Source: an uncultured Thiotrichales bacterium (GTDB lineage Bacteria; Pseudomonadota; Gammaproteobacteria; HK1). Taken from it: 64,000 bases of DNA. Under the pieces are notes generated by a model that worked only from the letters and a program-made list of their open reading frames with translations, was not told the DNA's origin and did no database searches. Position 1 is the stretch's first letter, and each line of letters begins with the position of its first letter. Shown here in pieces: positions 1,379 through 54,683 of this stretch. Both the position numbers and the translations under genes were made by a program. The stretch spans positions 2,193-66,192 of the forward strand of contig CAZSVE010000003.1 of the NCBI GenBank assembly GCA_964610175.1, read 5' to 3'.

Positions 1379-1489
1379 CTAGCGAAGCTTGTGCTCGAAC
1401 CGACGAGGCAGACCTAAGCATCGGTAAGGCAAGACTGGCGTCTCGTAAAACTTGGCTCATTTGCGAAGATAAGCGGGAAATAAACAAAA
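1379..1489 (+). repeat. Interspersed repeat family F1, full-length copy
   Basis: Reads CTAGCGAAGCTTGTGCTCGAACCGAC...CGTAAAACTTGG...AAGCGGGAAATAAACAAAA. Aligns end to end with the other F1 copies. Confidence 0.85.
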
Positions 1490-1621
1490 TGGAATCCTTG
1501 GGTTTTGGTCGGACCAGGCCAGGAGATCCCCCGCTGGGAATTCGTTCCGATAGAAAAATCACGTTTGAAAGAATCACGTTTTTAGAAGCACGACAAGGGG
1601 CCTTGTGGCCAAAGGAGGACA

Positions 1622-2044
1622 ATGATGGGACAAGTCATTGCAGACATTACCCTGGAAAACTACTTCGATCGGGTATTGTCACAAGAAGATCGTCTGGCAG
1701 CGGAGGCTGTGCGTACCCATGAAACCCCCGCGCTGGTGGATAGCGGTGCCGTGATGCTGGCGCTGCCCCAGGACGTTACGGAAAAACTGGGGCTGAAACC
1801 GGTCCGCAAGGTGATCGTGACTTATGCCGATGAGCGCCGCGAGGAATGCGAGGTCATGGCACCCATCTATCTCACGGTGGCGGGGCGCTCCATGGTGACC
1901 GAAGCGGTTACGGGGCCACCGCTTAGCGAGGCCCTCATCGGACAGGTGATATTGGAGGAATTGGATCTGTTGGTGGATTGTCAACGCCAGATTCTGACAC
2001 CACGGCCGGAATCGCCGATCTATCCGTCGCTGAAGATGAAATGA
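1622..2044 (+). CDS. Retropepsin-like (clan AA) aspartyl protease family protein
   Basis: 140-aa ORF with a strong SD (AAGGAGG 6 nt upstream of the ATG). Contains the D-S-G-A motif (LVDSGAVMLALP) at the typical position for small bacterial retropepsin-like proteins. Confidence 0.55.
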   Translation: MMGQVIADITLENYFDRVLSQEDRLAAEAVRTHETPALVDSGAVMLALPQDVTEKLGLKPVRKVIVTYADERREECEVMAPIYLTVAGRSMVTEAVTGPPLSEALIGQVILEELDLLVDCQRQILTPRPESPIYPSLKMK

Positions 2045-2103
2045 AGATGGAGTGAGGTGGAGTGAGAAGAACCCGGAGAGATCGGCTCGAGGCCCTGCCG
2101 AGG

Positions 2104-3108
2104 ATGAAATCGATATCCCGCATTATCCTGGCGCGTATCGTCTTGGTGCTTGTCGCCCTTTTTTCATCGATGGTATTCGCTGACGACTACCAACCCGTGA
2201 AAATCGCGAGCGGTGGGCACGTGGTGCATTTCTTGCCGCTGGATATCGCCATTGCCCACGGCTTTTTCCAGGAACAGGGCCTGAGGCCGGAGGTGACTTA
2301 TCTCAGGGCGGGAACGCCCACGGCCCAGGCTCTGCTGGCGGGCCAGGTAGATTTCAGCACGAATGGCATCGAGCATGCGTTCAAGGCCGCTGTCCAAGGT
2401 AAGGATAATCTTCGCATGGTGGTGTTGATGAATCGCCTGCCGGGTATGGTTTTAGTGGTGGACGCCAGATACCGAGGCAAAGTGGAGGACGTTTCGGATC
2501 TGAAGGGCCTGACCCTGGGCGTAACCTCCAAGGGGGCGGGCACCCACATGGTGCTTGACTACCTGCTCGGCAAGAATGGCGTTTCTCCCCATGAGGTCAC
2601 GGTCATCAAGGCCGGGACATCCACTTTCCCGCCAGCCCTGCAGAATCGTCAGATCGATGGGGGCATGGCTCTGGAACCCTTTGCCTCCATGCTGGTGGAG
2701 AACGGAGATGCCTTCGTGCTTGCCGATCTGAATACCCTTGCCAATACCGAAAGGGTCTTCGGTGGTCCCTATAATCTGGCGGGAATCGTGACCCGTCAGG
2801 CGGTTATCGACGCGGACCCGGCCCTGGTCGGCAAGGTGGTGGCGGCAATCCGGAAAGCATTGCGCTGGATCGCGACCCATTCCCCCCGGGCTATTGCCGA
2901 TGCGCTTCCGACAATCGTGGTGGGCACCGATAAAGAGAGATATATCGAAACCCTGAAAAAACTAGCGGAATTCTATAGTGCGGATGGGCGTATTCTCCCG
3001 ATTGGCGTGGATAGCGTATTTCGTTCCATGCAATTCTCCGGTGCCCTGCCCAAAGATACACCCCTGGATCAGGGGCGCTTTTATACCAATCGGTTTATCG
3101 TGGATTGA
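2104..3108 (+). CDS. ABC-transporter-type periplasmic substrate-binding protein (NMT1/SsuA/TauA-like)
   Basis: Track ORF 2062..3108. The ATG at 2104 gives the signal peptide MKSISRIILARIVLVLVALFSSMVFA. The rest resembles nitrate/sulfonate/bicarbonate-family binding proteins. No cognate permease or ATPase lies nearby. Confidence 0.7.
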   Translation: MKSISRIILARIVLVLVALFSSMVFADDYQPVKIASGGHVVHFLPLDIAIAHGFFQEQGLRPEVTYLRAGTPTAQALLAGQVDFSTNGIEHAFKAAVQGKDNLRMVVLMNRLPGMVLVVDARYRGKVEDVSDLKGLTLGVTSKGAGTHMVLDYLLGKNGVSPHEVTVIKAGTSTFPPALQNRQIDGGMALEPFASMLVENGDAFVLADLNTLANTERVFGGPYNLAGIVTRQAVIDADPALVGKVVAAIRKALRWIATHSPRAIADALPTIVVGTDKERYIETLKKLAEFYSADGRILPIGVDSVFRSMQFSGALPKDTPLDQGRFYTNRFIVD

Positions 3109-3127
3109 CGGGGAAAGGGAATCACCC

Positions 3128-3886
3128 GTGCCGAAGATCATCCACATGACCGATCTTCATCTCGATGATTTCCCCGGAAATCTCCATGAAGTCGCCACGC
3201 GAATCGAAGGACTGCAAGCCGATATCTTTTTAATCGGCGGCGATAACGGCGGCGATGCGGGTATCGCGCGGATCATTCGTCTGGTGCGCGGGATCCATCC
3301 CAGGGCCGCGATAGCCTGGGTCATGGGAAATCACGACCTGTGGAACCGCACCATCGATCACCTATGGCGGGACTATTCCTGTCTCGACGCTTGCTATTTG
3401 GAGACCGGCAACCTGGAGGCCGAGACATGCACCGTGGTCGGGACTTACGGTCACTACGACCATAGCGGTGGCGATTCCGGTATCCGTCATGAAACATACG
3501 AGCAGTACCGCTTCGAGAATATGGGCTGGAACGACCGTTACATCATCCGCGGTCATCGGAGCAATCCGGAAATAGCCCGGGAAATCGCCGAACGTTTCGC
3601 CATCAGATATCGATGCGCCCTGGCTCGCGGGCTGCCGGTGATCGTCCTCATGCACACACTGGCATTTGCGGAACTGAACGCATGGGGGCGCAATTTCTAC
3701 GGTGCATACGGTACCAACAGCCTTATCGGCGACGAGATCTCGAAACACGACACCAAGCCAGTCGTGCTCTTCTGCGGTCACACCCACAATCCCATTCGCA
3801 TCGAGGCCTATGGTTTTCCCATGATCAACACGGGAAGCGATTACGAGCACGTGCGGATCACGGTGTTTCGATTCCAGAGCGCCTAG
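3128..3886 (+). CDS. Metallophosphoesterase (calcineurin-like)
   Basis: Motifs IIHMTDLHLD, GGDNGGD, GNHD and CGHTH. A GTG at 3128 in the track frame (2978..3886) gives the canonical N-terminus. The start is uncertain (ATG at 3146 is the alternative). Confidence 0.7.
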   Translation: MPKIIHMTDLHLDDFPGNLHEVATRIEGLQADIFLIGGDNGGDAGIARIIRLVRGIHPRAAIAWVMGNHDLWNRTIDHLWRDYSCLDACYLETGNLEAETCTVVGTYGHYDHSGGDSGIRHETYEQYRFENMGWNDRYIIRGHRSNPEIAREIAERFAIRYRCALARGLPVIVLMHTLAFAELNAWGRNFYGAYGTNSLIGDEISKHDTKPVVLFCGHTHNPIRIEAYGFPMINTGSDYEHVRITVFRFQSA

Positions 3887-3942
3887 TTTTTGTTTGTTTC
3901 CCGCTTATTTGCGAATGATGGGCGGGAAATAAACAAAATAAC
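3887..3942. repeat. F1 end-module fragments, head to head
   Basis: TTTTTGTTTGTTTCCCGCTTATTTGCGAATGA is the reverse-oriented F1 3' module. It is followed by GGGCGGGAAATAAACAAAATA, the forward F1 3' module. Confidence 0.7.
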
Positions 3943-4049
3943 AGAATCAGAACCCTTCGAAAAATGACCTATGGGTTTCGGGACACCGCATTTTTTACGT
4001 TGAAAGTCAAGACTCTTCAGAAACCAAAGTACGCTTTAGTCGGATGAGC

Positions 4050-4212
4050 CGAAATTTACCACTTCCGTCATTCCGGTAGGGAATGCCGGGACCCGGACGC
4101 CAGGGATGGCAAAAACTACCCGTGAATTTTCGTGAAATCACAATCGGTAAAACCCTTCGACCAACCACGAACATTCGCGCGGTCATGTCGATTGTCGAGG
4201 AGGAATTGCATA
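4050..4212 (+). repeat. Interspersed repeat family F4 (163 bp), copy a
   Basis: About 96% identical (by eye, ~6 mismatches) to the reverse complement of 35497..35659. Its 5' part holds the hairpin GTCATTCCGGTAGGGAATGCCGGGAC. Confidence 0.9.
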
Positions 4213-4266
4213 TCGGGAGGGGTTCGGATCCTCCACCCGTGGTGGAGAATCGAGGTGGTCGGGGTC

Positions 4267-4707
4267 TTATCCGAAGCAAAGACGTATTCGAAGCCGTCGA
4301 AATGCATCCGCATCCGTTACCATATCCGGAGTCAAGACAACCGGCTTGGCCAGGCGTTTCCCTGTATTGAAGTTCAGAACGACGAGATAGGGATGCACAT
4401 ATACGGAAGGCCATGGGCCCCAGGTGGGTTCCAGGTCTCCACTGATGACTTGACCACCCCGCGTCCATAGTTGCCATGCACCTTCCGCCGTCCACAATAG
4501 CGTTGTGATGGAAGATCGGGAACAGCGAAGAGTGTGTTCGCAAGCGCTGAAAAACATGCTGAACGTGATGGCGCCCCCAACGATAAGCTTCGTCGATAAC
4601 GCCAATTCGACAATTATCAAGCAACCGGCGGCACCTCCGTGGGCGAGAAAAACCAGTAATGTCGAATATGGGGACCGCTGTAATGTAAGTCGTATCGGTT
4701 GCAGCAT
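4267..4707 (-). CDS. CptA/YgfX-like inner-membrane protein
   Basis: 146 aa with two N-terminal hydrophobic helices. The C-terminal pattern (WQLW...YLVVLNF...TPDMVTDADAFRRLRIRL) matches the YgfX/CptA architecture recalled from E. coli and Pseudomonas homologues. Confidence 0.5.
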   Translation of the reverse strand: MLQPIRLTLQRSPYSTLLVFLAHGGAAGCLIIVELALSTKLIVGGAITFSMFFSACEHTLRCSRSSITTLLWTAEGAWQLWTRGGQVISGDLEPTWGPWPSVYVHPYLVVLNFNTGKRLAKPVVLTPDMVTDADAFRRLRIRLCFG

Positions 4708-4783
4708 TATCGTCTTCTACTTGGGGAACAAGGTTTTTTCATGATGCTTTGGTCTCATTGAACGATAAGCTTTCCATCTTGGA

Positions 4784-4992
4784 TTAGGCAACCGCGATTT
4801 CCTGAACACCGATAAACCTGGATTCCATCTCGGGTTCCCCATCTTCGAGCAGCATTTGGAGACCTCTTCGAGATTTCGCATCGATTCATCGAGCCTAACG
4901 CCTTGTGAGTGTGCACCTGGGAATCCGGGAATAAAGCCCACATAGAACCCTGTTTTCGGGCATTGCTCGATGACAGCGACGGAACCTCTCAT
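4784..4992 (-). pseudogene. HicB-like (UPF0150) antitoxin gene with a 1-nt frameshift
   Basis: The N-terminal half (MRGSVAVIEQCPKTGFYVGFIPGFPGAHSQGVRLDESMRNLEEV) is in one frame. The canonical C-terminus (LQMLLEDGEPEMESRFIGVQEIAVA, then stop) is in the adjacent frame. The shift is near 4855-4865. Confidence 0.55.
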
Positions 4993-4993
4993 A

Positions 4994-7912: not shown

Positions 7913-8225
7913 CGGGATGAATTTCCTTTAGTGCCCATCTCCTCGAGACGCGGTAAACACCCAAGGGTTCGATGGGGTCTTATTTGGCGTGATTGCTGAT
8001 TTATTTGTTTTCCGCCCGGTCTGGTAAATGAGCCATGTTTTGCATGATGTCGATTTTCACCCGAATCCTCGAATCACGCTTTATCGGTTCGAGGAGAGGC
8101 TTTGCTGGCGTTTCGAAGGCCGTTGCGATATCCCGGGCGATGACCATGCCGGGATTCGGTTGTCTCGGGATGAATCGGGGGGTGGTCTTGCGTTGGACCT
8201 TGGCTGCAGTGGCGATTCCGTTCAG

Positions 8226-8313
8226 GTATCGGAAAAACAAGGATTCGAGGGAATCGGTGCATGCGCCAGGGGCCACCCCGCTTCAGTCCTGGCGCGAAGC
8301 GCTAGCATGTTCC
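8226..8313 (+). repeat. Interspersed repeat family F2, copy
   Basis: Reads GTATCGGAAAAACAAGGATTCGAGG...CCCGCTTCAGTCCTGGCGCGAAGCGCTAGCATGTT. Shares the F2 consensus with 12959, 26954 and 60131. Confidence 0.8.
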
Positions 8314-8325
8314 ATGGGTGCATTT

Positions 8326-8437
8326 CTAGCGAAGCTTATGCTCGGACCGACAACGCATGACCCCGTATCGGTAAAGCGGAATCGGTGTCTTGTAAAACTT
8401 GATTCCAATTGTGAAGTCGAGCGGGAAATAAACAAAA
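8326..8437 (+). repeat. F1, full-length copy
   Basis: Reads CTAGCGAAGCTTATGCTCGGACCGACAACGCATGACC...TTGTAAAACTTGATTCCAATTGTGAAGTCGAGCGGGAAATAAACAAAA. Confidence 0.85.
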
Positions 8438-8550: not shown

Positions 8551-8640
8551 GGAACATGTTGGCGCTTTGCGCCAGGATTGAAGTGGGGTGGGCCCTGGCG
8601 CACGCACCGGGATTCTCGGAATCTTTGTTTTTCCGACACC
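8551..8640 (-). repeat. F2, inverted copy
   Basis: Its reverse complement reads GGTGTCGGAAAAACAAAGATTCCGAGAATCCC...CCTGGCGCAAAGCGCCAACATGTTCC. Confidence 0.8.
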
Positions 8641-8689: not shown

Positions 8690-8770
8690 GAAACACCAAT
8701 ATCAAAACACGAATTTTGCTTTACCAATGCATGAATCATGCTTTGTCGATTCGAGTACAAGCTTCACTAG
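8690..8770 (-). repeat. F1, partial copy (5' and middle modules, reverse orientation)
   Basis: Reads ...TTTTGCTTTACCAATGCATGAATCATGCTTTGTCGATTCGAGTACAAGCTTCACTAG. Aligns to the reverse strand of F1 and lacks the GGGAAATAAACAAA end. Confidence 0.7.
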
Positions 8771-10653: not shown

Positions 10654-10763
10654 TTTGTTTATTTCCTGCTCAGCTTCACCATTGGATCAAGTTTTGCAAG
10701 GCACCAATCTCGCTTTACCAATATCGGGTCATGTGTTGTCGGCTCGAGGCGAAGCTTCGCTAG
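10654..10763 (-). repeat. F1, full-length copy (first of a head-to-tail pair)
   Basis: Reads TTTGTTTATTTCCTGCTCAGCTTCACC...GGCTCGAGGCGAAGCTTCGCTAG, the reverse complement of the F1 consensus. Confidence 0.85.
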
Positions 10764-10870
10764 TCTGTTTATTTCCCGCTCATCTTCGCAAACGAGTCGC
10801 CATTTTACGAAACACCAGTTTTGCTTTACCGAATGCTAAATCATGTCGGTTCGAGCACAAGCTTGGCTAG
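10764..10870 (-). repeat. F1, full-length copy (second of the head-to-tail pair)
   Basis: Reads TCTGTTTATTTCCCGCTCATCTTCGC...GGTTCGAGCACAAGCTTGGCTAG. It directly abuts the previous copy. Confidence 0.85.
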
Positions 10871-12958: not shown

Positions 12959-13042
12959 GTATCGGGAAAACAGAGATCCCGAGAAAACCGATGCGCCAAG
13001 ACCCATCCCGCTTCGGTCTTGGCGCGAAGCGCCGACACGTTC
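12959..13042 (+). repeat. F2, copy
   Basis: Reads GTATCGGGAAAACAGAGATCCCGAGAAAACCGATGCGCCAAGACCCATCCCGCTTCGGTCTTGGCGCGAAGCGCCGACACGTT. Confidence 0.8.
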
Positions 13043-13048
13043 TCCTTT

Positions 13049-14857: not shown

Positions 14858-16429
14858 TCATGGCCCCCGGCCATTCGGCTGCCCGGTCGGGCCCGATTCG
14901 GCAAGGGCCGCTTTTATCAGCGCGATCCACTCCCTTTGCTGCGCAGGCAGGCGGTCCTCCCCGGCGAGCGGCTCCAGGATGTCCAGGGCCTCGCGGAGCC
15001 ACCCCGCCCGTTGCGCCTTGTCTGTCTCCAGGATAGCCATCTTCGAAAGGCTTACCACCACATCGGTCTTCCACTCGACCCTCATGGGATCGAGCTCCGT
15101 GAGCCTCTCCCGGATCGACAACCCGTCCTGGTAGGCGGCGAGGGCCTTGGCGCCGTCGCCATTGGCTTTGTGCATGTCCCCTACCTTGTTGTGGCTCACC
15201 GAGAGGTTGCGCTGCCACTCGCTGTTTCCGGGGTCGAGCTCCGTGAGTTTTTCCCGAATCGACAACCCGTCCTGGTAGGCGGCGAGGGCCTTGGGCCCGT
15301 CGCCATTGGCGACGTGCATGTCCCCTACACGGTCGAAGCTCACCGAGAGGTCGCGCTGCCACTCGCTGTTTCCGGGGTCGAGCTCGGTGAGCTTTTCCCG
15401 AATCGACAACCCGTCCTGGTAGGCGGCGAGGGCCTTGGCGCCGTCGCCATTGGCGACGTGCATGTCCCCTACACGGTCGAAGCTCACCGAGAGGTCGCGC
15501 TGCCACTCGCTGTTTCCGGGGTCGAGCTCGGTGAGCTTTTCCCGAATCGACAACCCGTCCTGGTAGGCGGCGAGGGCCTTGGCGCCGTCGCCATTGGCTT
15601 TGTGCATGTCCCCTATCTTGTTATGGCTCACCGAGAGGTTGCGCTGCCGTTGCGGGTCATCGGGTTTCTGTTTGGCCCATCGCTTGAACAATGATCGGGC
15701 CTGTTGGTAGCGATCCAATGCGGCGCCGCTCTCGCCACGCAGGGCATCGATGTCGCCCAACTCGAGATGCGCAATGGCCTGCCAGTGTATCTGTCCTTTC
15801 CTTTCGGCGCGCCCCATGAGTTCCCGGGATGCGCGCAACGCCTCGTTGGAATCCCCGGCGCGCCGGGCGACACGCCCCAGATCGAGCCAGCCCTCCAGGG
15901 CCTCCGGATCGAGCACCACCGCCTCTCGGTAGCTCTCCAACGCCTTTCCGGTGTCGTGGAGATACACGAAGGCCCCCAGATGACGCGCCGTGGCGGCGGC
16001 CTCCCGCAGGGCATTGCGCCCGGCGAGCCTCTGGCTTTCCAGGTGGCGGCGCAATATGTCCTCTGCCCGAGCGGTGTCGCCTTTCTCGAGGAGGGAGATC
16101 GCCTCCTGGACGGCTGCCGCCTTCTCCGGCTCGGTTCGTTCGATGCGATACAGCGCATCGACGGCGGCCAATACCCGCCCTCGTTCCTCCTCCGGCATGT
16201 CACCGAGGGCATCGATGATCTCGCCCTTGGTGATTTCCTCGTTCCGAGTTTGCCGCGTGGCCCGGCTCTTCCGATAGGTGAATATCCCCCATCCGATGGA
16301 GAACAGGACGCCGATGGACGTCACGGAGAATACCAGTATTTGCAGATTGTCCCCTGTGAACAGGTTGGTCATGAGGCCGATGAGTCGATTATCCATGAAA
16401 GCTTGAACAAAATGGTCGAAAAATGTCAT
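14858..16429 (-). CDS. Tetratricopeptide-repeat protein with an N-terminal membrane anchor
   Basis: 523 aa. One TM helix (ILVFSVTSIGVLFSIGWGIF), then TPR-like repeats including four near-identical 48-aa units. The ATG at 16429 lies inside an F3 repeat arm, so the true start may be M12 or M20. Confidence 0.8.
   Translation of the reverse strand: MTFFDHFVQAFMDNRLIGLMTNLFTGDNLQILVFSVTSIGVLFSIGWGIFTYRKSRATRQTRNEEITKGEIIDALGDMPEEERGRVLAAVDALYRIERTEPEKAAAVQEAISLLEKGDTARAEDILRRHLESQRLAGRNALREAAATARHLGAFVYLHDTGKALESYREAVVLDPEALEGWLDLGRVARRAGDSNEALRASRELMGRAERKGQIHWQAIAHLELGDIDALRGESGAALDRYQQARSLFKRWAKQKPDDPQRQRNLSVSHNKIGDMHKANGDGAKALAAYQDGLSIREKLTELDPGNSEWQRDLSVSFDRVGDMHVANGDGAKALAAYQDGLSIREKLTELDPGNSEWQRDLSVSFDRVGDMHVANGDGPKALAAYQDGLSIREKLTELDPGNSEWQRNLSVSHNKVGDMHKANGDGAKALAAYQDGLSIRERLTELDPMRVEWKTDVVVSLSKMAILETDKAQRAGWLREALDILEPLAGEDRLPAQQREWIALIKAALAESGPTGQPNGRGP
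15086..15661. repeat. Intragenic tandem repeat, 4 x 144 bp
   Basis: Unit starts at 15086, 15230, 15374 and 15518 (exact 144-bp spacing read from the GGGGTCGAGCTC landmarks). The middle two units differ at only ~3-4 positions. Confidence 0.9.
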
Positions 16430-16576: not shown

Positions 16577-16684
16577 AGCGAAGCTTCGCCTCGAACCGAT
16601 GAGGCATGCGTTGGTGAATTCAGGGGAATCGGCGCTATCGAAATTCGATCGATCTGCGAAGCCAAGCGGGAAATACAAACAAAA
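16577..16684 (+). repeat. F1, near-full copy
   Basis: Reads AGCGAAGCTTCGCCTCGAACCGATGAGGCATGCG...CTGCGAAGCCAAGCGGGAAATACAAACAAAA. Confidence 0.8.
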
Positions 16685-16708: not shown

Positions 16709-17452
16709 TTACTCGGGATATCGTTCTATCCCCATGAGGGTCGCGCCGGCCACGGCGGCCGGGATGACCACGAAATTCAATCCGGGCACCATGGTGGCCA
16801 GCAATACCACGGCGCCGAAACCGAAGCCGAGGGCGCGGTGCTCGGAGAGGAGCCTTCGTTGCTCGGGGAACGACAGGCCCCGGTTTCCCAGGGGGTAATC
16901 GACGTATTCGATGGTGAGCATCCAGGCGCTGAACACCAGCCACGGGAACGCCGCGATGACATTGATGCCCGGGATCAGAAAGAGCAGCCCAAGGGGAATC
17001 GCCCGCGGGAGGAGGTATTGCAGCTTGCGCAGCTCGGAGAGCAGGGAGGGTACGATGCCCCTGGCGACATCCCGGAAGAATGCCAGCCATCCGGTGTTTT
17101 GGTTCCGGGGCGGACCCGTGAGCCTTTCCTGAATGGCCTCCGCGAGCAGGCTGTTGAAGGGGGCGGCGATGAGATTGCCCACCCAGGAAAACAGGAAAAA
17201 CACCACGAACAGGGCAAGGATGGCGAAAACCGGCCACAGCAGCCATCGCAGCCAATCGAGCCAGCCCGGGATCAGCCCGTCGAGCAGCGCATCGAATTGC
17301 CCGGCGCCGAAATAGATCAGTGTTGCGAACAACAGGGTATTGGTGAAAAGCGGGATGGCGACATATCGCCGGATGCCGGGCAGACTCAGCAGGGAAAGAC
17401 CCCGCCGAAAGTACCCGAACCCCGCGGCAAAATCATGGAGGTATGATTTCAT
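16709..17452 (-). CDS. cysZ: Sulfate transporter CysZ
   Basis: 247 aa. Collinear with E. coli CysZ as recalled from memory (GIRRYVAIPLFTN..., IAAPFNSLLAEAIQERLTG, LPRAIPLGLLFLIPGIN, IEYVDYPLGNRGLSF). Confidence 0.92.
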   Translation of the reverse strand: MKSYLHDFAAGFGYFRRGLSLLSLPGIRRYVAIPLFTNTLLFATLIYFGAGQFDALLDGLIPGWLDWLRWLLWPVFAILALFVVFFLFSWVGNLIAAPFNSLLAEAIQERLTGPPRNQNTGWLAFFRDVARGIVPSLLSELRKLQYLLPRAIPLGLLFLIPGINVIAAFPWLVFSAWMLTIEYVDYPLGNRGLSFPEQRRLLSEHRALGFGFGAVVLLATMVPGLNFVVIPAAVAGATLMGIERYPE

Positions 17453-21753: not shown

Positions 21754-21785
21754 AATTATCTCCAGGGACCGAATTCACGAAGATG

Positions 21786-21897
21786 TACGAAACGCCGGTT
21801 TTGCTTTACCGATGCCGGTTCATGCCTTGTCGGGTTACGCCCTTCGGTCTAACCCGACCTACTCCGATCTTGTCGGTTCGAGTACAAGCTTGGCTGG
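21786..21897 (-). repeat. F1, diverged partial copy with an internal ~35-bp insert
   Basis: Reads GTACGAAACGCCGGTTTTGCTTTACCGATGCCGGTTCATGCCTTGTCGG [GTTACGCCCTTCGGTCTAACCCGACCTACTCCGATC] TTGTCGGTTCGAGTACAAGCTTGGCTGG. Confidence 0.65.
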
Positions 21898-23094: not shown

Positions 23095-23202
23095 CTGGCG
23101 AAGCTTCGCTTCGAGCCGATGAAGCATGATTCGGCATTCGTAGAGCAAAGTCGGCGTCTTGTAAAACCTGGCTCATTTGCCAAGACGAGCGGGAAATAGA
23201 CA
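23095..23202 (+). repeat. F1, full-length copy (first of a head-to-tail pair)
   Basis: Reads CTGGCGAAGCTTCGCTTCGAGCCGATGAAGCATGATTCGG...CCAAGACGAGCGGGAAATAGACA. Confidence 0.85.
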
Positions 23203-23314
23203 CTAACGAAGCCTGTGCTCGAACCGGTGAAACATGATTGAGCCTTGGTAAGGCGGAATTGGCGCCTTGTAAAAACTTGATCCGATTGCGAAGCCGAGCG
23301 GGAAATAAACAACT
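23203..23314 (+). repeat. F1, full-length copy (second of the pair)
   Basis: Reads CTAACGAAGCCTGTGCTCGAACCGGTGAAACATGATTG...GCGAAGCCGAGCGGGAAATAAACAAC. It abuts the previous copy. Confidence 0.85.
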
Positions 23315-24017: not shown

Positions 24018-24090
24018 AGTTCTCGAGAGAACCTGTGTGCGCGCATGGACCCATCCCGCTTCGGTCCTGGCGCGAAGCGCCAACATGATT
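24018..24090 (+). repeat. F2, partial copy
   Basis: Reads ...GCGCGCATGGACCCATCCCGCTTCGGTCCTGGCGCGAAGCGCCAACATGATTC. Confidence 0.75.
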
Positions 24091-24369
24091 CTTGCTTCGT
24101 TTTCCAATGCGCACGCGCTGGAGGGGGGAGAGGCGCATCGCTCTGCTTTCTTCGTCCATACCCCTGCCGTACTCGGATTCCGGCATCCTAACGTTACATC
24201 TATCCTCCCCATTGCGTGGAAAAAACACACCCTCAATCGATATAGGCAGGGAAGTGAGTATAATGATCGCACGAGAATGGCGGGTAAAAAATATTGTAAT
24301 TCAATAATATATAATACTAATATAGGAATATTCCCGTGCGCTTGGAGGATGCACCCGAAAATCGATGTT

Positions 24370-24409
24370 CTAGCGAGGCTGCGCCTCGGATCGATGAAGC
24401 ATGATTCGT
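24370..24409 (+). repeat. F1, 5'-module fragment
   Basis: Reads CTAGCGAGGCTGCGCCTCGGATCGATGAAGCATGATTCG, after which the homology ends. Confidence 0.7.
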
Positions 24410-26953: not shown

Positions 26954-27040
26954 GTATCGGAAAAATAAAAATTCTGAAAAACCTAGCCTCGAAATCAAGG
27001 CCCACCCCCTTCAGTCTTGGCGCGAAGCGCTAACATATTC
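26954..27040 (+). repeat. F2, copy
   Basis: Reads GTATCGGAAAAATAAAAATTCTGAAAAACC...GGCCCACCCCCTTCAGTCTTGGCGCGAAGCGCTAACATATTC. Confidence 0.8.
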
Positions 27041-27090
27041 ATCTATTTGGAAAAACGAAGTTTCCGAAAGCTTTTGGGGGTTCGAATAAC

Positions 27091-27117
27091 CTAGCGAAGC
27101 TTCGCTTCGAACCGACA
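27091..27117 (+). repeat. F1, 5'-module fragment
   Basis: Reads CTAGCGAAGCTTCGCTTCGAACCGACA. Confidence 0.7.
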
Positions 27118-27617
27118 TGAAAAAAGGATGGATGTACGGAATTAGCGGTTCTTCGAACATTTTCTGCCAAATTGCCGAGAAAAAGATAAGGGTATGGCAA
27201 GGCAGGGAATCAAGGAAAAGCAACCTGTAATTCCTCCTTGACTTGCCAAAGAGGGTTTGGGATACGAGAAGAAACGAATCTCCTAACCCTCCTAACCCCC
27301 CTAACGAACTCCACATATAGAGTGGAGCTTTTCCCCGAAACGCGGTTTGGCGTTCTCTCCAATTTGGAATCTCATCTATTTCGGGCGGCGATTCCGGAAC
27401 ATGATCCGTAACTTCCTTGTACTGCTTTTTCACTCGGCTGGCCAGAACATAATACCCCTTCAGTACAACTCTATTGTTACCACCAGTAATAGCATAAACA
27501 ATCAAAATTGATTATGATTACGCCGATTATCGTGGGAATATCGGACAATTTCAGGGTGGTCCGACTATCGAGAATTCATCCTTCAATGCTTGTAAATGAA
27601 CCGCTTGGGAGTCCAAA

Positions 27618-28999: not shown

Positions 29000-29099
29000 C
29001 TAGCGAGGCTTCGCCTCGGACCAATGAACCATAATCCTGCGCTAGTAAAGAACCGTTAGAACTTGGCTCATTTGTAAAGCTGAGCGGGAAATAAACAAA
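29000..29099 (+). repeat. F1, copy (1 of 3 in this gap)
   Basis: Reads CTAGCGAGGCTTCGCCTCGGACCAATGAACC...TTTGTAAAGCTGAGCGGGAAATAAACAAA. Confidence 0.85.
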
Positions 29100-29102
29100 T
29101 TA

Positions 29103-29207
29103 AAAGCTTCGCCTCGAACCGATGAGACATGATTCGGTAGTAGAGTAAAATCAGCGTGTTGTAAAACTTGATTCATTTGGGAATGCCGAGCGGGAAATAA
29201 AACAAAA
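29103..29207 (+). repeat. F1, copy (2 of 3)
   Basis: Reads AAGCTTCGCCTCGAACCGATGAGACATGATTCGG...GGGAATGCCGAGCGGGAAATAAAACAAAA. Head to tail with the previous copy. Confidence 0.85.
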
Positions 29208-29295: not shown

Positions 29296-29405
29296 CTGGC
29301 GAAGCTTGTGCTCGAACCGACAACGCATGACCCGGTATTGGCAAAGCGAGATTGGCGCCTTGTAAAACTTGATACATTTGTGAAGATGAGCGGGAAATAA
29401 ACAAA
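29296..29405 (+). repeat. F1, copy (3 of 3)
   Basis: Reads CTGGCGAAGCTTGTGCTCGAACCGACAACGCATGACCCGG...TGTGAAGATGAGCGGGAAATAAACAAA. Confidence 0.85.
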
Positions 29406-29564
29406 TTAGCTCTATCCTTCTCTTCGATGGCTTGCGCTTCTCCTCGATGATCTTCCTCTTTGCATTCGGTGCACCATTCCAGGGTAGCGCGGTTCCGGCG
29501 GGTTGGGATATATTTTTCGAAACAAGATCCGAAGAGACGACAAAGAAGGAGGGTTCGAGAGAAA

Positions 29565-30798: not shown

Positions 30799-30898
30799 CT
30801 GGCGAGGCTGCGCCTCGGACCAATGAAGCATGCTTTTGTATTAGTAAAGCACTCTTGAAATTCGATCCATTTGTAAAGCCGAGCGGGAAATAAACAAA
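30799..30898 (+). repeat. F1, copy
   Basis: Reads CTGGCGAGGCTGCGCCTCGGACCAATGAAGCATGC...TTTGTAAAGCCGAGCGGGAAATAAACAAA. Confidence 0.85.
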
Positions 30899-42276: not shown

Positions 42277-42376
42277 TTTGTTTGTTTCCCGCCCAGCTTC
42301 ACGATTGGATCGAGTTTTACAAGGCACGAATTCCGGGTTACCAAGCCTCGATGATGTTTCATCGGTTCGAGGCTAA
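42277..42376 (-). repeat. F1, copy truncated at its 5' module by the rpn duplication boundary
   Basis: Reads TTTGTTTGTTTCCCGCCCAGCTTCACGATTGGATCGAGTTTTACAAGG...CATCGGTTCGAGGC. The homology stops just before 42381. Confidence 0.8.
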
Positions 42377-45632: not shown

Positions 45633-45743
45633 CTAGCGAGGCTTCGCCTCAAACCGACAAGGCATGGTCGAGTATTGATAAAGCGAGATTGGCGTCTTGT
45701 AACACTTGATCCAATTGTGAAGCTGGGCAGGAAATAAAAAAAT
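45633..45743 (+). repeat. F1, full-length copy
   Basis: Reads CTAGCGAGGCTTCGCCTCAAACCGACAAGGCATGG...TTGTGAAGCTGGGCAGGAAATAAAAAAA. Confidence 0.85.
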
Positions 45744-45756
45744 AGCAGTACGAACG

Positions 45757-47257: not shown

Positions 47258-47457
47258 ATTTTGTTTATTTCCCGCTCGGCTTGTGCTCGATCCGACAAGG
47301 CACGATTCGCCTGGCTCCCGAGCTTCTGGCTTGGGAGCATGGATCGTGGAAGCCCCAGCTTTCGGAAAAGCCTCCCAGTCTCCCGCTTGGGGGGCAAGCG
47401 GAGCTGGCGTTTCGTGAAATCCGGCTCATCGGCAAAGCCGAGCGGGAAATAAACAAA
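47258..47457. repeat. F1-derived composite (reverse 3' module + forward 5' fragment + unrelated insert + forward 3' module)
   Basis: Reads ATTTTGTTTATTTCCCGCTCGGC | TTGTGCTCGATCCGACAAGGCACGATTCG ... | ...CGTGAAATCCGGCTCATCGGCAAAGCCGAGCGGGAAATAAACAAAG. Confidence 0.7.
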
Positions 47458-51275: not shown

Positions 51276-51319
51276 AACAGGTTTTCAGCGCAAAGATCAA
51301 AGGCATCGACCTTAAGCAA

Positions 51320-51375
51320 TTTTGGTTGAATTTATGCGAAATCATGCTTTGTCGGTTTGAGGCGAAGCTTCGCTA
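51320..51375 (-). repeat. F1, 5'-module fragment (reverse)
   Basis: Reads ...GCGAAATCATGCTTTGTCGGTTTGAGGCGAAGCTTCGCTAG. Confidence 0.7.
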
Positions 51376-51400
51376 GGGTTTCCAATTGGAGGATGATTCC

Positions 51401-52057
51401 ATGACCGACGAAGAACTCAAGGAACTCGTTGCCGGTTTACTGGTTTCTCAGCAGGAGATTTTAGTCTCTCAGCGGGGAAATTTGGCTTTTCAGAAGGAGA
51501 CAAACGCTGGTATTAGGGAATTGCGCGCATCCCAACGGGAAACCGATCGGCAAATGAAAGAAACCGATCGGCAGATGAAGGAGACCGATCTGCAAATCAA
51601 GGAGCTGGGCCGTCAGATTGGCGGGCTGGGTAGGAAGTTCGGTGGTTTTACCGAAGGTATGGCCTACCCATCCATGAAGAGGCTGCTGCGGAAGCGTTTC
51701 CATATGGAGACCATTACCCCACGGGTAGAGATATCCCGAAACGGCAAACACATGGAGTTGGATGTGCTGGGCTATTCCAATGGCAAGGGAAATCGGGTCG
51801 TGGTCGTGGAGGTCAAGAGCCGCCTTACCCCGGAAGGCATCGATCGGATGGAGCGAACCATGACCCGTTTCGATGAATTTTTCCCGGAGCATCGGGAAAA
51901 GCGACGTTTCGGGATGATCGCGGCGGTGGATTTTTCCCCGAATGTGGAGATCCAAGCCCGTCGGCGAGGATTCTATCTGGCCCGTATTCAGGACGAGTTG
52001 TTTGTCCTGCAATCCCCGGAATCATTTGAACCTCGCTATTTCGGTGGCGTGTCATGA
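51401..52057 (+). CDS. DUF3782-type PD-(D/E)xK nuclease-fold protein with N-terminal coiled coil
   Basis: GGAGGA lies 8 nt upstream of the ATG at 51401. Repeated ETDRQMKETDRQMKETDLQIKELGRQIGGLGRKFGGFTEG. The nuclease-like core is MELDVLGYSNGKGNRVVVVEVKSRL (D...E-x-K). Confidence 0.68.
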   Translation: MTDEELKELVAGLLVSQQEILVSQRGNLAFQKETNAGIRELRASQRETDRQMKETDRQMKETDLQIKELGRQIGGLGRKFGGFTEGMAYPSMKRLLRKRFHMETITPRVEISRNGKHMELDVLGYSNGKGNRVVVVEVKSRLTPEGIDRMERTMTRFDEFFPEHREKRRFGMIAAVDFSPNVEIQARRRGFYLARIQDELFVLQSPESFEPRYFGGVS

Positions 52058-52249
52058 GCAGCGTTGCACCTCGGGCCGAAATAATGGAAACCAAGGGCTG
52101 TCTCGGTCTCTCGACAGAATATCGGGATCGCGGCATTCTCCTCGGCTGGCGATTGATATTTTTGCCAACCGATCCATCGAGAGGCCTGGAAGTGGGCAAG
52201 GTATGGGTTTTCGGTGTTGATCGAGAGAGTTCCGAACCCGAACCATATC

Positions 52250-52354
52250 CTGGCGAAGCCTCGCTTCGAACCGATGAAGCGTGATTTGATATTAGCAAAA
52301 TCAGTGTCTTGTAGAATTTGACTCGTTTGCGAAAATGAGCGGGGAATAAACGAA
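52250..52354 (+). repeat. F1, copy
   Basis: Reads CTGGCGAAGCCTCGCTTCGAACCGATGAAGCGTGATTTG...TTTGCGAAAATGAGCGGGGAATAAACGAA. Confidence 0.8.
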
Positions 52355-52646
52355 GCAATGCCCCGTGGAAATCGATTATCAGAACCTCGACGCTCCCCGG
52401 TAATCCCCCTCTCCCCCGAAGAACCACCCCACGACTTCTTCTCAGGTAGCGCCGCCAGCGGCGAGAATCATTCTCCGTTGTCATCTCCACCGGAAGAAGA
52501 CATCTTCGGATTCCACGGGAATATTCGCTTCCCGGTTTTTTGCCGCTGTATGTGGGCAGGCGGATCGGCGGAAAGGATCGTTTACTATAGGCGGGAAAGA
52601 CCGCATGGAACACGCCACGATAAGACACACATGACGAACCAAAAAA

Positions 52647-53786
52647 ATGCGACTGAAATCCGTTGAATACACTGAACGCCAAGGTACGCTCCAGGAGTGG
52701 ACGCTGCGCGGATTGACCCTGGAGGATATCAACCTGCTGGTGGGCAAGAACGCCTCCGGCAAGAGCATGATTCTTAATATTATCCACGGGGTTGCCCATG
52801 GAATTGTCGGCAGGCGCCCGCCGCCTACCCATGAACATTTTACGTTTGTATTCGACGAAAACGAGCTGGAAACCAGATACGAGTTAGGAGCCGAGAATGG
52901 AAAGCTCGTTTCTGAATGCTTTACGGTGGACAACGAGGTCAAGCTGGAGCGCGGCCCAGGGGGCGTAGGCAGAATCCATGCCGAGAAGGAAGGAAAATTT
53001 ATCGAGTTCCAGACCCCGGAGGACCAACTGGCTATCGCTGCCCGACGCGATACCCTCCAGCATTCGTTCTTCGAGCCGATGAGTCAGTGGGCCGATTCGC
53101 TGTATTTCTATGCGTTCGGTACCCCGTTGGGGAAAGATCGCGGGGCGGTACTCACCGATGATATATCGGGCGTGGATTCCAAGGATCCATCACAAGTAGT
53201 CGCTATTTTTCACAAAGGAAAAAGGCAATTCGGCGACAAATTCATCGATGCGGTGCGGGAAGACTTCAAGGTGGTCGGCTACGCCATCGACGACATCGGA
53301 CTCACGACGCCTCTTCGTTATATGGGAATGAATGCGCCAATCTCTGGTAGCGAATTGTTGGTGATCTATGTCCAGGAGGCCGGCCTGCCAGGGATTACCG
53401 AGCAAACCGAAATGTCTCAGGGAATGTTCCGCGCCCTGTCTCTCATCATCCAGATCGATTACGCCGTCCTCGTCGGCACGCCGAGCTGCATCCTCATCGA
53501 CGATATCGGCGAGGGACTGGATTTCGAGCGCTCCGTGAATCTCATCGATGTCCTGATAAAAAAGGCCAAGAACTCCGCCGTGCAGCTCATCATGGCCAGC
53601 AACGATTCCTTCGTCATAAACCATGTGCCTTTGGAGGTCTGTGCCTTTGTCGACCGACAGGACAACCATGTGGAGATCCGGAATTATGCCAACTCCAGGG
53701 AGATCTTCGACCGCTTCCAGTTTACCGGCCTCAACAACTTCGATTTCCTGGCCTTCGATTACCTGCGTGCGGAGGTCGAGGAATGA
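52647..53786 (+). CDS. ABC/AAA-type ATPase (AAA_21/AAA_15-like, SMC-fold)
   Basis: 379 aa. Walker A LLVGKNASGKS, signature-like MSQGMFRALSLI, Walker B SCILIDDIGEGLD. There is a long insert between Walker A and the signature, as in OLD/AbiL/PARIS-type ATPases. Confidence 0.8.
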   Translation: MRLKSVEYTERQGTLQEWTLRGLTLEDINLLVGKNASGKSMILNIIHGVAHGIVGRRPPPTHEHFTFVFDENELETRYELGAENGKLVSECFTVDNEVKLERGPGGVGRIHAEKEGKFIEFQTPEDQLAIAARRDTLQHSFFEPMSQWADSLYFYAFGTPLGKDRGAVLTDDISGVDSKDPSQVVAIFHKGKRQFGDKFIDAVREDFKVVGYAIDDIGLTTPLRYMGMNAPISGSELLVIYVQEAGLPGITEQTEMSQGMFRALSLIIQIDYAVLVGTPSCILIDDIGEGLDFERSVNLIDVLIKKAKNSAVQLIMASNDSFVINHVPLEVCAFVDRQDNHVEIRNYANSREIFDRFQFTGLNNFDFLAFDYLRAEVEE

Positions 53787-54574
53787 ACGGGTCCGAGGTG
53801 AATAAGTCGATGGTCAATAAGCTGGCCATCTTCGTGGAGGGCCGTACAGAGCAGATCTTCGTGGAGAGATTGGTTCGCTTCCTCGGGGAGAGTGTAGATC
53901 TGGCCATCCGCGTCGATGGCGCGGAAGGGGGACGACACAAACCTCGTCGTTTTATCCGGATGAGCGGAACCAGGGAAACGGAGGGATATGAGTTCTTCGT
54001 TCTCATCGTGAATTGTGGCCAGGACGCACGCGTCAAATCGGATATTCTGAAACGCTACAACCGTTTAGTCAGCCAGGGCTACCGCTACATCATCGGAATC
54101 CGCGACGTCCATCCCCATGACCGGAAAGATACCCACCATATTCGGCAAGGATTCCAGTTCGGATTACCCACCACGCCATGCAAGCCGGTCTTGATCCTGG
54201 CCATCATGGAGATCGAGGCTTGGTTCCTGGCCGAATACGCGCACTTTCCCCGCATCCACCCGAGCCTCACCAGGGCGCGAATCGGACGGGAATTCGGCTT
54301 CGATCCCGCCGAGGACGACATGCAGCTTCGCGACCACCCGGCCAGGGATCTGGAAGCCATCTACTTCCTGGAGGCAATCCCCTACGCAAAGAGCCGCGAA
54401 AACGTGGAACGAACCGTGGATAGCCTGGATTTTTCCCGTATCCGAGACGAGGTGGCGGCACGGATCGCCGATCTTGCAAGATTGACGGGGCTGATTCGGG
54501 CCTTTTTCACGTATTCCGAACAAACCGACAAGGTGTGCGATGAGTCCCTCCCTCGACCACGGCTGTCTGTGTAG
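53783..54574 (+). CDS. DUF4276-like (Toprim-like) protein
   Basis: 263 aa. Its start overlaps the ATPase stop (ATGA at 53783-53786). N-terminus LAIFVEGRTEQIFVERLV, acidic block IGIRDVHPHDRKD and MEIEAWFLAEY match my recollection of the DUF4276 pattern (VEGxTE...EFEAW). The stop codon TAG is supplied by the first bases of the F1 repeat at 54572. Confidence 0.68.
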   Translation: MNGSEVNKSMVNKLAIFVEGRTEQIFVERLVRFLGESVDLAIRVDGAEGGRHKPRRFIRMSGTRETEGYEFFVLIVNCGQDARVKSDILKRYNRLVSQGYRYIIGIRDVHPHDRKDTHHIRQGFQFGLPTTPCKPVLILAIMEIEAWFLAEYAHFPRIHPSLTRARIGREFGFDPAEDDMQLRDHPARDLEAIYFLEAIPYAKSRENVERTVDSLDFSRIRDEVAARIADLARLTGLIRAFFTYSEQTDKVCDESLPRPRLSV

Positions 54575-54683
54575 CGAGGCTTCGCTTCGAGCCCACAAGG
54601 CATGATCCATGCGGCTGGTGAAGCAAAACCGGTGTTTTGTAAAACTCGACTTGTCTGCGAAGCCGAGCGGGAAATAGACAAAG
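54572..54683 (+). repeat. F1, full-length copy
   Basis: Reads GTAGCGAGGCTTCGCTTCGAGCCCACAAGGCATGATCC...CTGCGAAGCCGAGCGGGAAATAGACAAAG. Confidence 0.85.

Follow-up and report, generated by a model that had tools for sequence, protein, structure and literature searches.

What is the directional repeat of about 110 bp that recurs throughout the 64,000-nt stretch of DNA analyzed here (the window, from an uncultured Thiotrichales bacterium), and how does it spread? The earlier note had described this family, F1, as very abundant in the window, with at least 15 near-full copies and at least 7 fragments. The repeat is real, and these numbers agree with the counts obtained here. An nhmmer profile (two rounds, E<1e-3, 109 model positions) yielded 21 significant matches in the window, 16 of them near-full (spanning about 100 or more model positions) and 5 partial. 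The repeat search of the window recovered F1 as families D2, D4, D5, D6, and D8, and it alone detected a further 5' fragment at 27090. The two consensus ends had 4 and 6 matches in the window with at most three mismatches, vs. none in 100 shuffles. The copies, with the positions of the nhmmer model that they cover, are as follows.

1379-1488, plus strand: full copy (model 1-109; repeat search D5/D6)
8002-8106, minus: near-full (3-108)
8326-8436, plus: full (1-109; D5/D6)
8702-8770, minus: 3'-truncated fragment (1-68)
10655-10763, minus: full, downstream partner of a head-to-tail pair (1-109; sequence read)
10766-10870, minus: full, upstream partner of the same pair, 2-nt spacer (1-108; sequence read)
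16577-16677, plus: near-full (3-106), just downstream of a minus-strand gene ending at 16709
21779-21835, minus: internal fragment (20-76)
23095-23202, plus: full, first of a tandem pair, 0-nt spacer (1-108)
23203-23312, plus: full, second of the tandem pair (1-109)
24370-24408, plus: 5' fragment (1-39)
27090-27134, plus: 5' fragment under the nhmmer threshold (repeat search D4 only)
29000-29098 (= C3:31192), plus: short (~99 bp), recently active subfamily type (1-109), 89% identical to the short-subfamily reference
29104-29201, plus: lacks the first 6 nt, in tandem with the 29000 copy (7-106)
29296-29406, plus: full (1-109), reference copy of D2/D5
30799-30897, plus: short subfamily with a TGC hairpin loop (1-109), the type closest to the copies of relative G023 (82-89% matches there)
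42278-42376, minus: lacks the first 10 nt (11-109), adjoins the left edge of the 42378/43764 duplication (D7)
45633-45742, plus: full (1-108; sequence read)
47395-47456, plus: 3' fragment (48-109)
51299-51376, minus: 3'-truncated fragment (1-84)
52250-52351, plus: near-full (1-107)
54571-54683 (= C3:56763), plus: full, starts with GTAG (2-109)

The 3.14-Mb assembly contains 1,001 F1 matches, 717 of them near-full, with 493 on the plus and 508 on the minus strand. Their lengths peak at 110 bp, and together they occupy 94.6 kb, or 3.0% of the assembly. F1 is a non-coding DNA element of about 110 bases present in about 1,000 copies in a small bacterial genome.

The ends of F1 are exact and polar, CTAG…GGGAAATAAACAAA. 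The fixed left end consists of C-T-A-G and, next to it, a short GC stem-loop (CGARGC-TTC-GCYTCG), and the right end is likewise fixed, unstructured, and A-rich (GAGCGGGAAATAAACAAA). The interior is free to vary and differs between genera, whereas the termini are conserved; the 5' module retains about 90% conservation across genera of very different GC content. The consensus ends are not complementary to each other, so F1 lacks terminal inverted repeats, as the earlier note had stated, and a search for target duplications at F1 insertions revealed none. Information in the flank falls to zero immediately left of C1, the left flank having almost no preference. The right flank prefers a tetranucleotide W/Y-Y-A-R (ATAA, TCAA, TTAA, TTAG, CTAG) that resembles the first four bases of the element itself; at 0.3-0.7 bits per position, this is a weak preference. 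Fixation is much stronger in the left tetranucleotide, where C and G reach 86% and 96%, than in the right one, where they reach 15% and 21%, and exact identity of the two within a copy is in small excess (6.0% vs. 3.7%).

The 5' hairpin is weak, with a mean DNA folding energy of -2.7 kcal/mol for positions 1-24 vs. -1.7 to -2.2 in shuffles. The 12-nt palindrome at the 5' end is confined to one subfamily, and the consensus stem has a mismatch. A structured small RNA family would account for the directionality of F1 and for the high conservation of parts of its sequence. Nevertheless, no covarying base pair was found among 673 full copies, folding z-scores on both strands (-1.5 to +0.8) are like those of shuffles, an Rfam search gave no match even at E up to 5, and the repeat occurs in both orientations relative to genes and has no terminator. 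We consider it extremely improbable that F1 encodes such an RNA, and the alignments and folding energies suggest that no fold, of RNA or DNA, is under selection.

Head-to-tail tandems reported at 10655/10766, 23095/23203, and 29000/29104 (nhmmer coordinates) are real, and 41 pairs and 7 triplets with a spacing of 0-4 bp were found genome-wide. Their junctions are uniform (...AAACAAA|CTAG...): insertion often takes place precisely at the right edge of a copy already there, and 4 of the 14 youngest copies directly follow the right end of another copy. Three copies are nested within other F1 copies, with boundaries exactly CTAG...AAACAAA and no duplication, and in each case the host sequence is continuous across the insert. 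Opposite-strand neighbors within 200 bp show no preferred arrangement (40 divergent vs. 39 convergent pairs). BOX and BIME mosaics are similarly intergenic, composite-looking, and clustered in tandem, and F1 had been read as modular in the same sense. But those systems consist of defined modules in varying combinations, and the modular reading of F1 is not supported: breaks in the 133 5'-truncated and 126 3'-truncated copies are spread over the whole element, with a single peak at model position 68, the insertion point of a second repeat, F2. The F1 fragments are either copies truncated at arbitrary points or parts of copies into which F2 has inserted.

F1 is, or recently was, mobile. In the 99-bp subfamily, at least 14 copies share 93-100% identity, yet the sequences that flank them are unrelated. 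The earlier note had called for a comparison of orthologous regions, and in the nearest relatives these are almost entirely devoid of F1: about 85 kb orthologous to the window in G023 and G010 contain one copy, vs. about 20 around the same genes here, so that occupancy differs. G023 has about 60 copies in its genome. In the related genus g5, the F1 5' module is present at 4-33 copies per genome, and several of these genomes are complete. Within g5, G063 has at least seven F1-like elements that are 95-100% identical, and an intergenic spacer that contains an element in G063 has none in its G059 ortholog.

ERIC and BIME have been proposed to spread through recombination and gene conversion. In the same way, F1 could be a repeat that the host maintains, for instance as an mRNA element or as the binding site of a regulatory or nucleoid protein, and that never was, or no longer is, a transposon. 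The conserved 5' module would fit, as would several features of placement. F1 is overwhelmingly intergenic, though not strictly so as had been claimed: by crude gene calls, 57 of the 1,001 midpoints lie within called genes and 97 matches overlap a gene by more than 20 nt. Copies between divergent genes are enriched (222 of the 806 classified vs. a 20% share of intergenic length), and co-orientation with flanking genes is slightly favored (295 vs. 206), both orientations being observed. On the other hand, copies between convergent genes are under-represented (83), so the placement does not look terminator-like; the earlier note had predicted that F1 shapes transcription and termination. Conservation is limited to the termini, and relatives do not share F1 occupancy at orthologous loci. 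The 673 full copies are all unique, with a median identity of 81% to the consensus, a divergence that looks like neutral decay. Finally, without transposition it would be difficult to explain the exact-ended nested insertions and the near-identity of copies whose flanks are unrelated. Host maintenance is, in our judgment, improbable.

We tentatively propose, with slightly less than even confidence, that F1 is a mobile DNA element without any coding capacity, non-autonomous and moved in trans, following the IS91-type rolling-circle grammar (HUH, single-strand nick-and-join). An enzyme would nick one strand after the YTAR tetranucleotide flanking the right end, the F1 strand would be peeled off as far as the CTAG that lies behind the hairpin, and this strand would then be joined at another YTAR site. 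In IS91-type elements, the left end is the termination end. The work of Bardaji et al. (2011; PMC3189936) on IS91, IS801, and a 229-nt IS801 derivative shows that the first tetranucleotide of such an element equals the target tetranucleotide beside its right end, that a GC-rich stem-loop occupies the left end, that inverted repeats are absent, and that the transposase acts in trans. F1 shares with this family and its miniatures the absence of terminal inverted repeats and of target duplications, the fixed polarity, and the proposed mobilization in trans. Its left GC stem-loop, its conserved, essential-looking right end, and a target tetranucleotide that lies beside the right end only and resembles its own first four bases are also IS91-like. 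In contrast, F1 uses CTAG/YTAR rather than GAAC/CAAG, and its copy number is far above that reported for IS91-derived miniatures.

The co-resident repeat F2, with 297 copies, carries the two ends of an IS91-like element (GAACATG and a hairpin ... CTTTGTTTTTCCGATAC) and is flanked on the right by (T)GAA(C). F2 is derived from an IS91-like element and is a direct example of the IS91 rule operating in this genome. F1 has no significant sequence similarity to F2 or to the resident IS91-like element, whose gene lies at a contig end, is interrupted by an in-frame TAA (a pseudogene), and has no homologue in any of 52 related genomes. The assembly contains no autonomous partner bounded by F1 ends, nor was a Y2 transposase carrying such ends detected. 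One-ended transposition, a signature of IS91, left no visible products, as 5'-truncated copies do not start at YTAR-like sites. Also counting against this reading, the orientation of F1 copies is unbiased with respect to GC skew. All eight g5 genomes lack RAYT and Y2/IS91 matches, and the three checked for Y1 genes (G063, G004, G059) have none. Thus, a classical HUH transposase is not needed for the g5 branch, unless it is too divergent to be detected or resides on unassembled DNA.

An excised circle, integrated by a site-specific recombinase (tyrosine, serine, or IS110-type) through crossover next to a YTAR/TA core, requires no HUH enzyme and so fits g5. The left CTAG and the right YTAR would then be two copies of a core-like site; both tetranucleotides are indeed YTAR-like with the same TA > CA/TG spectrum, and the AAACAAA|CTAG tandem junctions resemble circle junctions. 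However, the unequal fixation of the two tetranucleotides and their lack of copy-by-copy correlation beyond the small excess do not suit this explanation, and the right junction is without TA in 5 of the 14 youngest copies. Fragments of IS110 transposase genes are present in the genome, but they are truncated relics, and the diversity of F1 sites does not match the high site specificity of enzymes of this type. Serine recombinases were not detected. We regard integration of a circle as unlikely.

The earlier note had also likened F1 to REP sequences moved by a RAYT (REP-associated Y1 tyrosine transposase), which would recognize the 5' CTAG and hairpin. Like REPs and REPINs, F1 is very abundant, intergenic, and non-coding, and its tetranucleotide ending in TAG beside a hairpin resembles the GTAG and palindrome of REP. 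REP-type elements, too, leave no target duplications. As in REP/RAYT systems, the genome has a single-copy intact RAYT gene (C4:24721-25305; NCBIfam NF047646, 86 bits at a cut-off of 80), in addition to two RAYT pseudogenes, and a co-oriented F1 copy lies 26 bp upstream of the intact gene. Yet at about one F1 per 3 kb, adjacency to a single gene is weak evidence, and what flanks this gene is a direct repeat of 165 nt private to it rather than F1 copies in inverted orientation. REPs are strong palindromes of 20-40 nt, often in inverted pairs flanking the RAYT gene; F1 is 110 nt long with a long unstructured tail, a short, weak, mismatched hairpin, and no head-to-head or tail-to-tail preference. 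F1 does not co-vary with RAYT across relatives: G023 shows no RAYT, g5 genomes with F1-like elements, complete ones included, have no RAYT and, in the three checked, no Y1 gene, and the RAYT-rich genera g15 and g7 have none of the F1 5' module. Movement by the RAYT is therefore distinctly unlikely. Lack of co-variation between a transposase and copy number had been named beforehand as an argument against the RAYT idea, and no co-variation with RAYT genes was seen.

Classical MITEs (Correia, ERIC, Nezha, MITEPsy1, and others) resemble F1 in being small, non-coding, intergenic, and numerous, moved in trans, and able to change gene ends, but their defining features are terminal inverted repeats and target-site duplications, and F1 has neither. 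PATEs derived from IS200/IS605 are polar, lack inverted repeats and target duplications, and move as single-stranded DNA, as proposed here for F1. However, they have strong subterminal hairpins at both ends rather than one weak hairpin, and they insert 3' of a fixed tetra- or pentanucleotide flanking the left end, whereas F1 shows its flank preference on the right side. TnpB genes were not detected in the assembly. The Y1 gene in the window (62989-63444) gives no support to the RAYT reading; it encodes an IS200-type transposase, and its flanking hairpins occur nowhere else in the genome.

The impact of F1 on genes is visible at several loci. A copy had been predicted to supply the stop codon at 54572, and ORF 53783-54574 does terminate at TAG 54572-54574 of the copy at 54571-54683. 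The minus-strand copy at 42278-42376 lies, as claimed, at the left edge of a duplication, and copies also lie at truncation points, two IS110 transposase fragments being cut off at F1 ends. Genome-wide, F1 accounts for 3% of the sequence, its CTAG provides the stop codon of 39 co-oriented genes, which end exactly in its TAG, and it marks the truncation of others.

As the earlier note had proposed, the copy number of the polar, non-coding F1 repeat was determined genome-wide. An nhmmer profile, built in two rounds and applied at E<1e-3 to the whole assembly holding the window (G000; 3.14 Mb, 159 contigs, 53.7% G+C), yielded 1,001 matches (717 near-full), with 493 on the plus and 508 on the minus strand. 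Their combined length of 94.6 kb amounts to 3.0% of the genome. About 1,000 copies occupying 3% of a 3.1-Mb genome place F1 among the densest small bacterial repeats. Within the window (C3:2193–66192), the profile gives 16 near-full and 5 partial matches, 21 in all, and one further 5' fragment was seen in the repeat search alone. This independent repeat search of the window also recovers the family, and the consensus ends match there 4 and 6 times with at most three mismatches vs. 0 in 100 shuffles. The coordinates, the tandem pairs and the count first read by eye are thus confirmed. Among the 53 genomes of the taxonomic family, full-length F1 is confined to G000 and its two nearest relatives: a first look gave 845 candidates in G000 (1,001 by nhmmer), approximately 60 in G023, and a few in G010.

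Only 57 of the 1,001 match midpoints fall within a called gene, as judged by our own crude gene calls; hence, F1 is overwhelmingly intergenic. Copies between divergently transcribed genes (222) outnumber those between convergent ones (83), and within tandem gene pairs F1 is mildly co-oriented with the genes (295 vs. 206). This placement is not terminator-like. A link between F1 orientation and replication was looked for by way of GC skew, to which orientation shows no relation. A separate repetitive feature of the window, at 15050–15769, consists of at least four 144-bp tandem units, 67–87% identical, within an open reading frame on the minus strand (14858–16429).

The F1 consensus is CTAGCGAAGCTTCGCCTCGAACCGACGAAGCATGATTTGGCATTGGTAAAGCAAAATTGGCGTTTTGTAAAACTTGACTCATTTGCGAAGCTGAGCGGGAAATAAACAA(A). 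Its left boundary is very sharp, with zero information at positions -1 to -3 and 1.2–1.7 bits from C1 onward, and the right end carries the signature GAGCGGGAAATAAACAAA. The distance between the 5' and 3' motifs peaks at 110 bp (165 copies), followed by 111 bp (68) and 109 bp (40). Between the consensus ends, CTAGCGAAGCTTCGCC and ...GCGGGAAATAAACAAA, there is no complementarity, so F1 lacks terminal inverted repeats, as originally claimed. No two of the 673 extracted full copies are alike; the median copy is 81% identical to the consensus.

A short stem-loop, CGARGC-TTC-GCYTCG, immediately follows CTAG within the first 24 nt; its stem of at most 6 bp pairs fully in the youngest subfamily but contains a mismatch in the consensus. 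With DNA parameters, positions 1–24 have a mean folding energy of -2.7 kcal/mol, compared with -2.2 for column-shuffled and -1.7 for sequence-shuffled controls, and constitute the sole segment slightly more stable than the column-shuffled controls; the right-end segment, positions 85–109, practically does not fold (-0.2 kcal/mol). Compensatory substitutions and Rfam membership, both suggested as checks in the earlier note, were sought in vain. Mutual-information and pair-excess analysis of all column pairs in the 673 copies gave no candidate stem above the expected pairing, the mutual-information signals being subfamily markers. RNAalifold returned nothing, single copies folded no better than their shuffles on either strand (z from -1.5 to +0.8), and Rfam gave no match at gathering thresholds nor at E up to 5. 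A structured RNA or DNA family can therefore be rejected.

F1 is real and very abundant: a non-autonomous mobile element that was active recently, whose end sequence is new and whose grammar resembles that of IS91. A 99-bp subfamily comprises at least 14 copies that are 93–100% identical to one another, with wholly unrelated flanks. Three copies are nested within other F1 copies (C16:44799, C28:5383 and C35:5503), and in each the host sequence resumes on both sides with nothing lost or gained. The insert is thus exactly CTAG...AAACAAA, and no target duplication is formed. Comparative data point in the same direction: approximately 85 kb of G023 and G010 orthologous to the window genes, at about 75% nucleotide identity, contain one F1 copy vs. 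about 20 at the same genes in the window. Closer relatives that could provide clean empty sites were sought by a metagenome scan, which gave only 27–28% identical proteins, and by an exact-protein look-up, which gave none.

The left flank shows a weak excess of A at -5/-4 only. The right flank has a weak W/Y-Y-A-R preference (T 49%; T 58%, C 27%; A 75%; A 49%, G 21%), the most frequent tetramers being ATAA, TCAA, TTAA, ATAT, and TTAG. This right-flank tetranucleotide, hereafter YTAR, looks like the first four bases of F1 itself (CTAG, CTGG, CCAG, TTAG). The likeness is not a duplication for two reasons. Firstly, the left tetranucleotide is far more fixed. Secondly, the two agree exactly within the same copy in 6.0% of cases, barely above the 3.7% of shuffled pairs. 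Direct repeats of 2–8 nt around F1 are not enriched at any offset. A TA or YTAR target duplication of the IS630 or IS5 kind is ruled out by the flank search, the youngest copies and the per-copy matching. One-ended transposition was also rejected, as the starts of truncated copies are not at YTAR sites.

Head-to-tail neighbors (41 pairs and 7 triplets) share a uniform junction, ...AAAC(A/G)A(A)-CTAG..., where the dash marks the boundary. Four of the 14 youngest copies lie directly behind the right end of an older copy, indicating that tandems are made by insertion and not by slippage. Neighbors in opposite orientation within 10 bp number 37.

The incomplete copies had been read as modules resembling those of BOX or BIME elements, a reading that is not supported. 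The 259 truncated copies (133 lacking the 5' part and 126 lacking the 3' part) have break points that are scattered over the whole element with a single peak at model position 68, which is due to repeated insertion of a second repeat, F2, at this point. Many seeming half-copies are in fact one F1 interrupted by an 88–90-bp F2. Given the scatter and these splits, the fragments are best read as truncations and interruptions; mosaic BOX and BIME repeats, in contrast, combine defined modules in varied ways, a pattern not seen in F1.

F2 is about 90 bp long and has 297 copies in the assembly, 229 of them near-full, making up 0.8% of the genome. Its copies in the window are:

8226–8313, F2 copy
8551–8640, F2 copy
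12975–13046, F2 copy
24023–24094, F2 copy
26999–27040, F2 copy
60173–60214, F2 copy

The left end of F2 is GAACATG plus a hairpin, the right end is CTTTGTTTTTCCGATAC, and the right flank is (T)GAA(C). An IS91-type (Y2) transposase gene occupies the end of contig C62 (C62:16637–17689); it contains an in-frame TAA and is cut off by the contig end. No homolog was found among the other 52 genomes of the family, and a plasmid collection gave relatives of only 24–27% identity, but other metagenome contigs carry homologs of 430 aa with 63–75% identity. These define the ends of the IS91-like element as GAACATGATGCCC-TGC-GGGC... and ...CTTTGTTTTTCCGATACAT. The F2 ends, GGAACATGTTAGCGC-TTC-GCGCC...CTTTGTTTTTCCGATACC, match both, and hence F2 is a non-autonomous IS91-family derivative. 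An F1-like 5' fragment located 60 bp beyond the left end of the C62 element was considered as its own end and dismissed, since the homologs show that the true end is GAACATG plus the hairpin.

Members of the IS91 family lack inverted repeats, have an essential right end and a GC-rich left stem-loop, and act in trans; their first tetranucleotide equals the target tetranucleotide beside the right end (PMC3189936). By analogy, F1 appears to follow this formal rule, with CTAG/YTAR taking the place of GAAC and a right-flank preference that is weak. Like IS91-family derivatives, it has no inverted repeats, no target duplication, and a fixed polarity. The family target at the right end is GAAC or CAAG, however, whereas F1 starts with CTAG and has the weak W/Y-Y-A-R flank. 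Moreover, IS91 derivatives share their ends with an autonomous Y2 element; F2 does so, while no such element exists for F1 in G000. Alignments of F1 with the IS91-like ends and with F2 are no better than shuffles, and thus F1 does not derive from the resident IS91-like element.

F1 was also compared with other classes of small mobile elements. MITEs have terminal inverted repeats and a target-site duplication, while the F1 ends are not complementary and no duplication accompanies even the nested insertions. PATEs derived from IS200/IS605 have a subterminal hairpin at either end, and their left end is preceded by a fixed tetra- or pentanucleotide; in F1, the right end is practically unfolded and positions -1 to -3 carry no information.

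The earlier note had suggested mobilization by a Y1 transposase of the REP-associated type (RAYT). The Y1 gene of the window (62989–63444) scores as an IS200-type transposase. Inverted ends rich in hairpins, each about 100 nt long, enclose it within 62850–63550 (CCCAGGGTTGCCGCGAAGCGGCTACCCTGGG and ACACAACCCCAACGGGGTTGCGT). As they have no further occurrence in the assembly, this is a single private element and not the source of an abundant REP. Just upstream of its left hairpins lies a perfectly phased array of 21-bp units (62539–62769), crossed by an open frame (62525–62719). The region of the Y1 element is bracketed by two copies (60260–60673 and 63575–64000; 86–88% DNA identity) of a small gene pair that is HicB/HicA-like as judged by eye from the translations (MRYTVVLEPSEEGYAVSVPGLPGCHSQG..., MPKFVGINHLDAVRALKKAGFWVARQGKH...).

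The assembly has one intact RAYT, on contig C4 (NF047646, 86 bits at a cut-off of 80); two others are pseudogenes. An F1 copy lies 26 bp upstream of the intact gene and on the upstream side only, which is weak evidence given that there is approximately one F1 per 3 kb. The gene is situated between two direct GC-rich 165-nt copies, 94% identical and present nowhere else in G000 (C4:24505–25625; locus L006 1210–2330), and between the upstream copy and the gene there are one F1 fragment and one full F1. The distribution of the F1 5' module across the family was assessed with AGCGARGCTTYGCCTCRRACC, allowing at most two mismatches (reversed-pattern control, 0–1).

Occurrences of the F1 5' module
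G000: 431
G023: 55
G010: 3
Sister genus g5: 4–33 per genome in 6 of 8 genomes
Genus g12: 0–9 per genome
Most other genera: 0

None of the eight g5 genomes, several of them complete, has a RAYT, and no Y1 gene turned up in the three examined for one (G063, G004, and G059), whereas RAYT-rich genera have zero modules. RAYT genes thus do not co-vary with F1 across the family, the outcome that the earlier note had named as refuting its idea, and the RAYT link is not supported. F1 also differs from REPs and REPINs: these are stable imperfect palindromes of about 20–40 nt with a GTAG-type 5' tetranucleotide that flank their RAYT, usually in inverted orientation, and co-occur with it across genomes. 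F1 begins with CTAG, measures 110 nt, has a stem of at most 6 bp with a consensus mismatch, and does not co-occur with RAYT; the C4 RAYT is accompanied by a lone upstream F1 and a private direct repeat.

Further candidates were sought within G000. No autonomous F1 parent was found, as every pair of 5' and 3' ends at a distance of 0.7–4 kb has ordinary genes in between (coaD-like, trpD-like, and others). Searches for TnpB and serine recombinases found none. Three IS110 transposase fragments have only 700–800 bp in common:

C57:370–1181, IS110 fragment
C21:3090–3801, IS110 fragment, coding sequence cut at an F1 3'-end fragment
C101:7003–7808, IS110 fragment, coding sequence cut at an F1 5' end

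The latter two are relics truncated at F1 copies.

In G004 and G063 of genus g5, the F1 5' module heads GC-rich elements of 190–215 nt. Examples sharing the 35-nt head and part of the right half of F1 are:

G063:C1 1214582–1214759, F1-like element
G063:C1 2763338–2763512, F1-like element
G004:C1 1877600–1877830, F1-like element

Near the right end, these elements also carry the F1 core ...AAACTTGACTCA...GAAGATGA..., while their right terminus differs (...GCCTCAAGGAGTC). At least seven copies in G063 are 95–100% identical, several of them with an additional 24-nt internal hairpin insert at the same identity, and at one site where G063 has the element, the corresponding position in G059 is a 30-nt spacer that lacks it. 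Beside several of the elements (G063:C1:619600–621400, 1039100–1040900, and 3706500–3708300) there is a second repeated block (...CGCTTACGCGCTGGCGAAGGCGTAGTCGACAC..., ...GAAATCGGTGATTTTTCCGGGCT...). At one locus, the F1-like element lies exactly inside this block, and at another the block is unbroken; the latter may represent a clean empty site. No Y2 gene of any kind was found in the genus. These data indicate an F1 superfamily whose ends are conserved and whose interior is free, recently active in a genome without known HUH transposases. Near-identical copies in complete genomes that lack any detectable Y1, RAYT, or IS91-type gene also raise the conceivable, if rather unlikely, prospect that F1 and the GC-rich elements of the sister genus together constitute a new class of polar elements lacking inverted repeats and target duplications and moved by something other than the known Y1 and Y2 HUH enzymes. 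The conserved 35-nt head (CTAG and alternative hairpins, ...ACCGACGAGGCATG) would then be the recognition site of an uncharacterized mobilization system.

Insertion of F1 has consequences for adjacent genes. An upstream gene in the same orientation stops exactly at the TAG in positions 2–4 in 39 cases. Only four genes use the stop of the next frame, which lies 34 nt inside the element, and gene ends 0–10 nt upstream of F1 are very few. This preference for one frame is best explained by selection favoring insertions that do not lengthen the protein. Targeting of native stop codons was rejected: when the empty site is reconstructed, the junction regains a stop in only 8 of 32 cases, about as the flank composition predicts. 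As a stop is so seldom restored, most F1-terminated genes had their 3' ends replaced.

F1 thus alters the ends of genes, 39 of which stop in it, lies at truncation points, and fragments assemblies, and its profile provides both an annotation mask for the lineage and a strain-typing marker. Its mobilizer, once found, would represent either a new specificity among IS91/HUH enzymes or a different route for elements without inverted repeats and target duplications.
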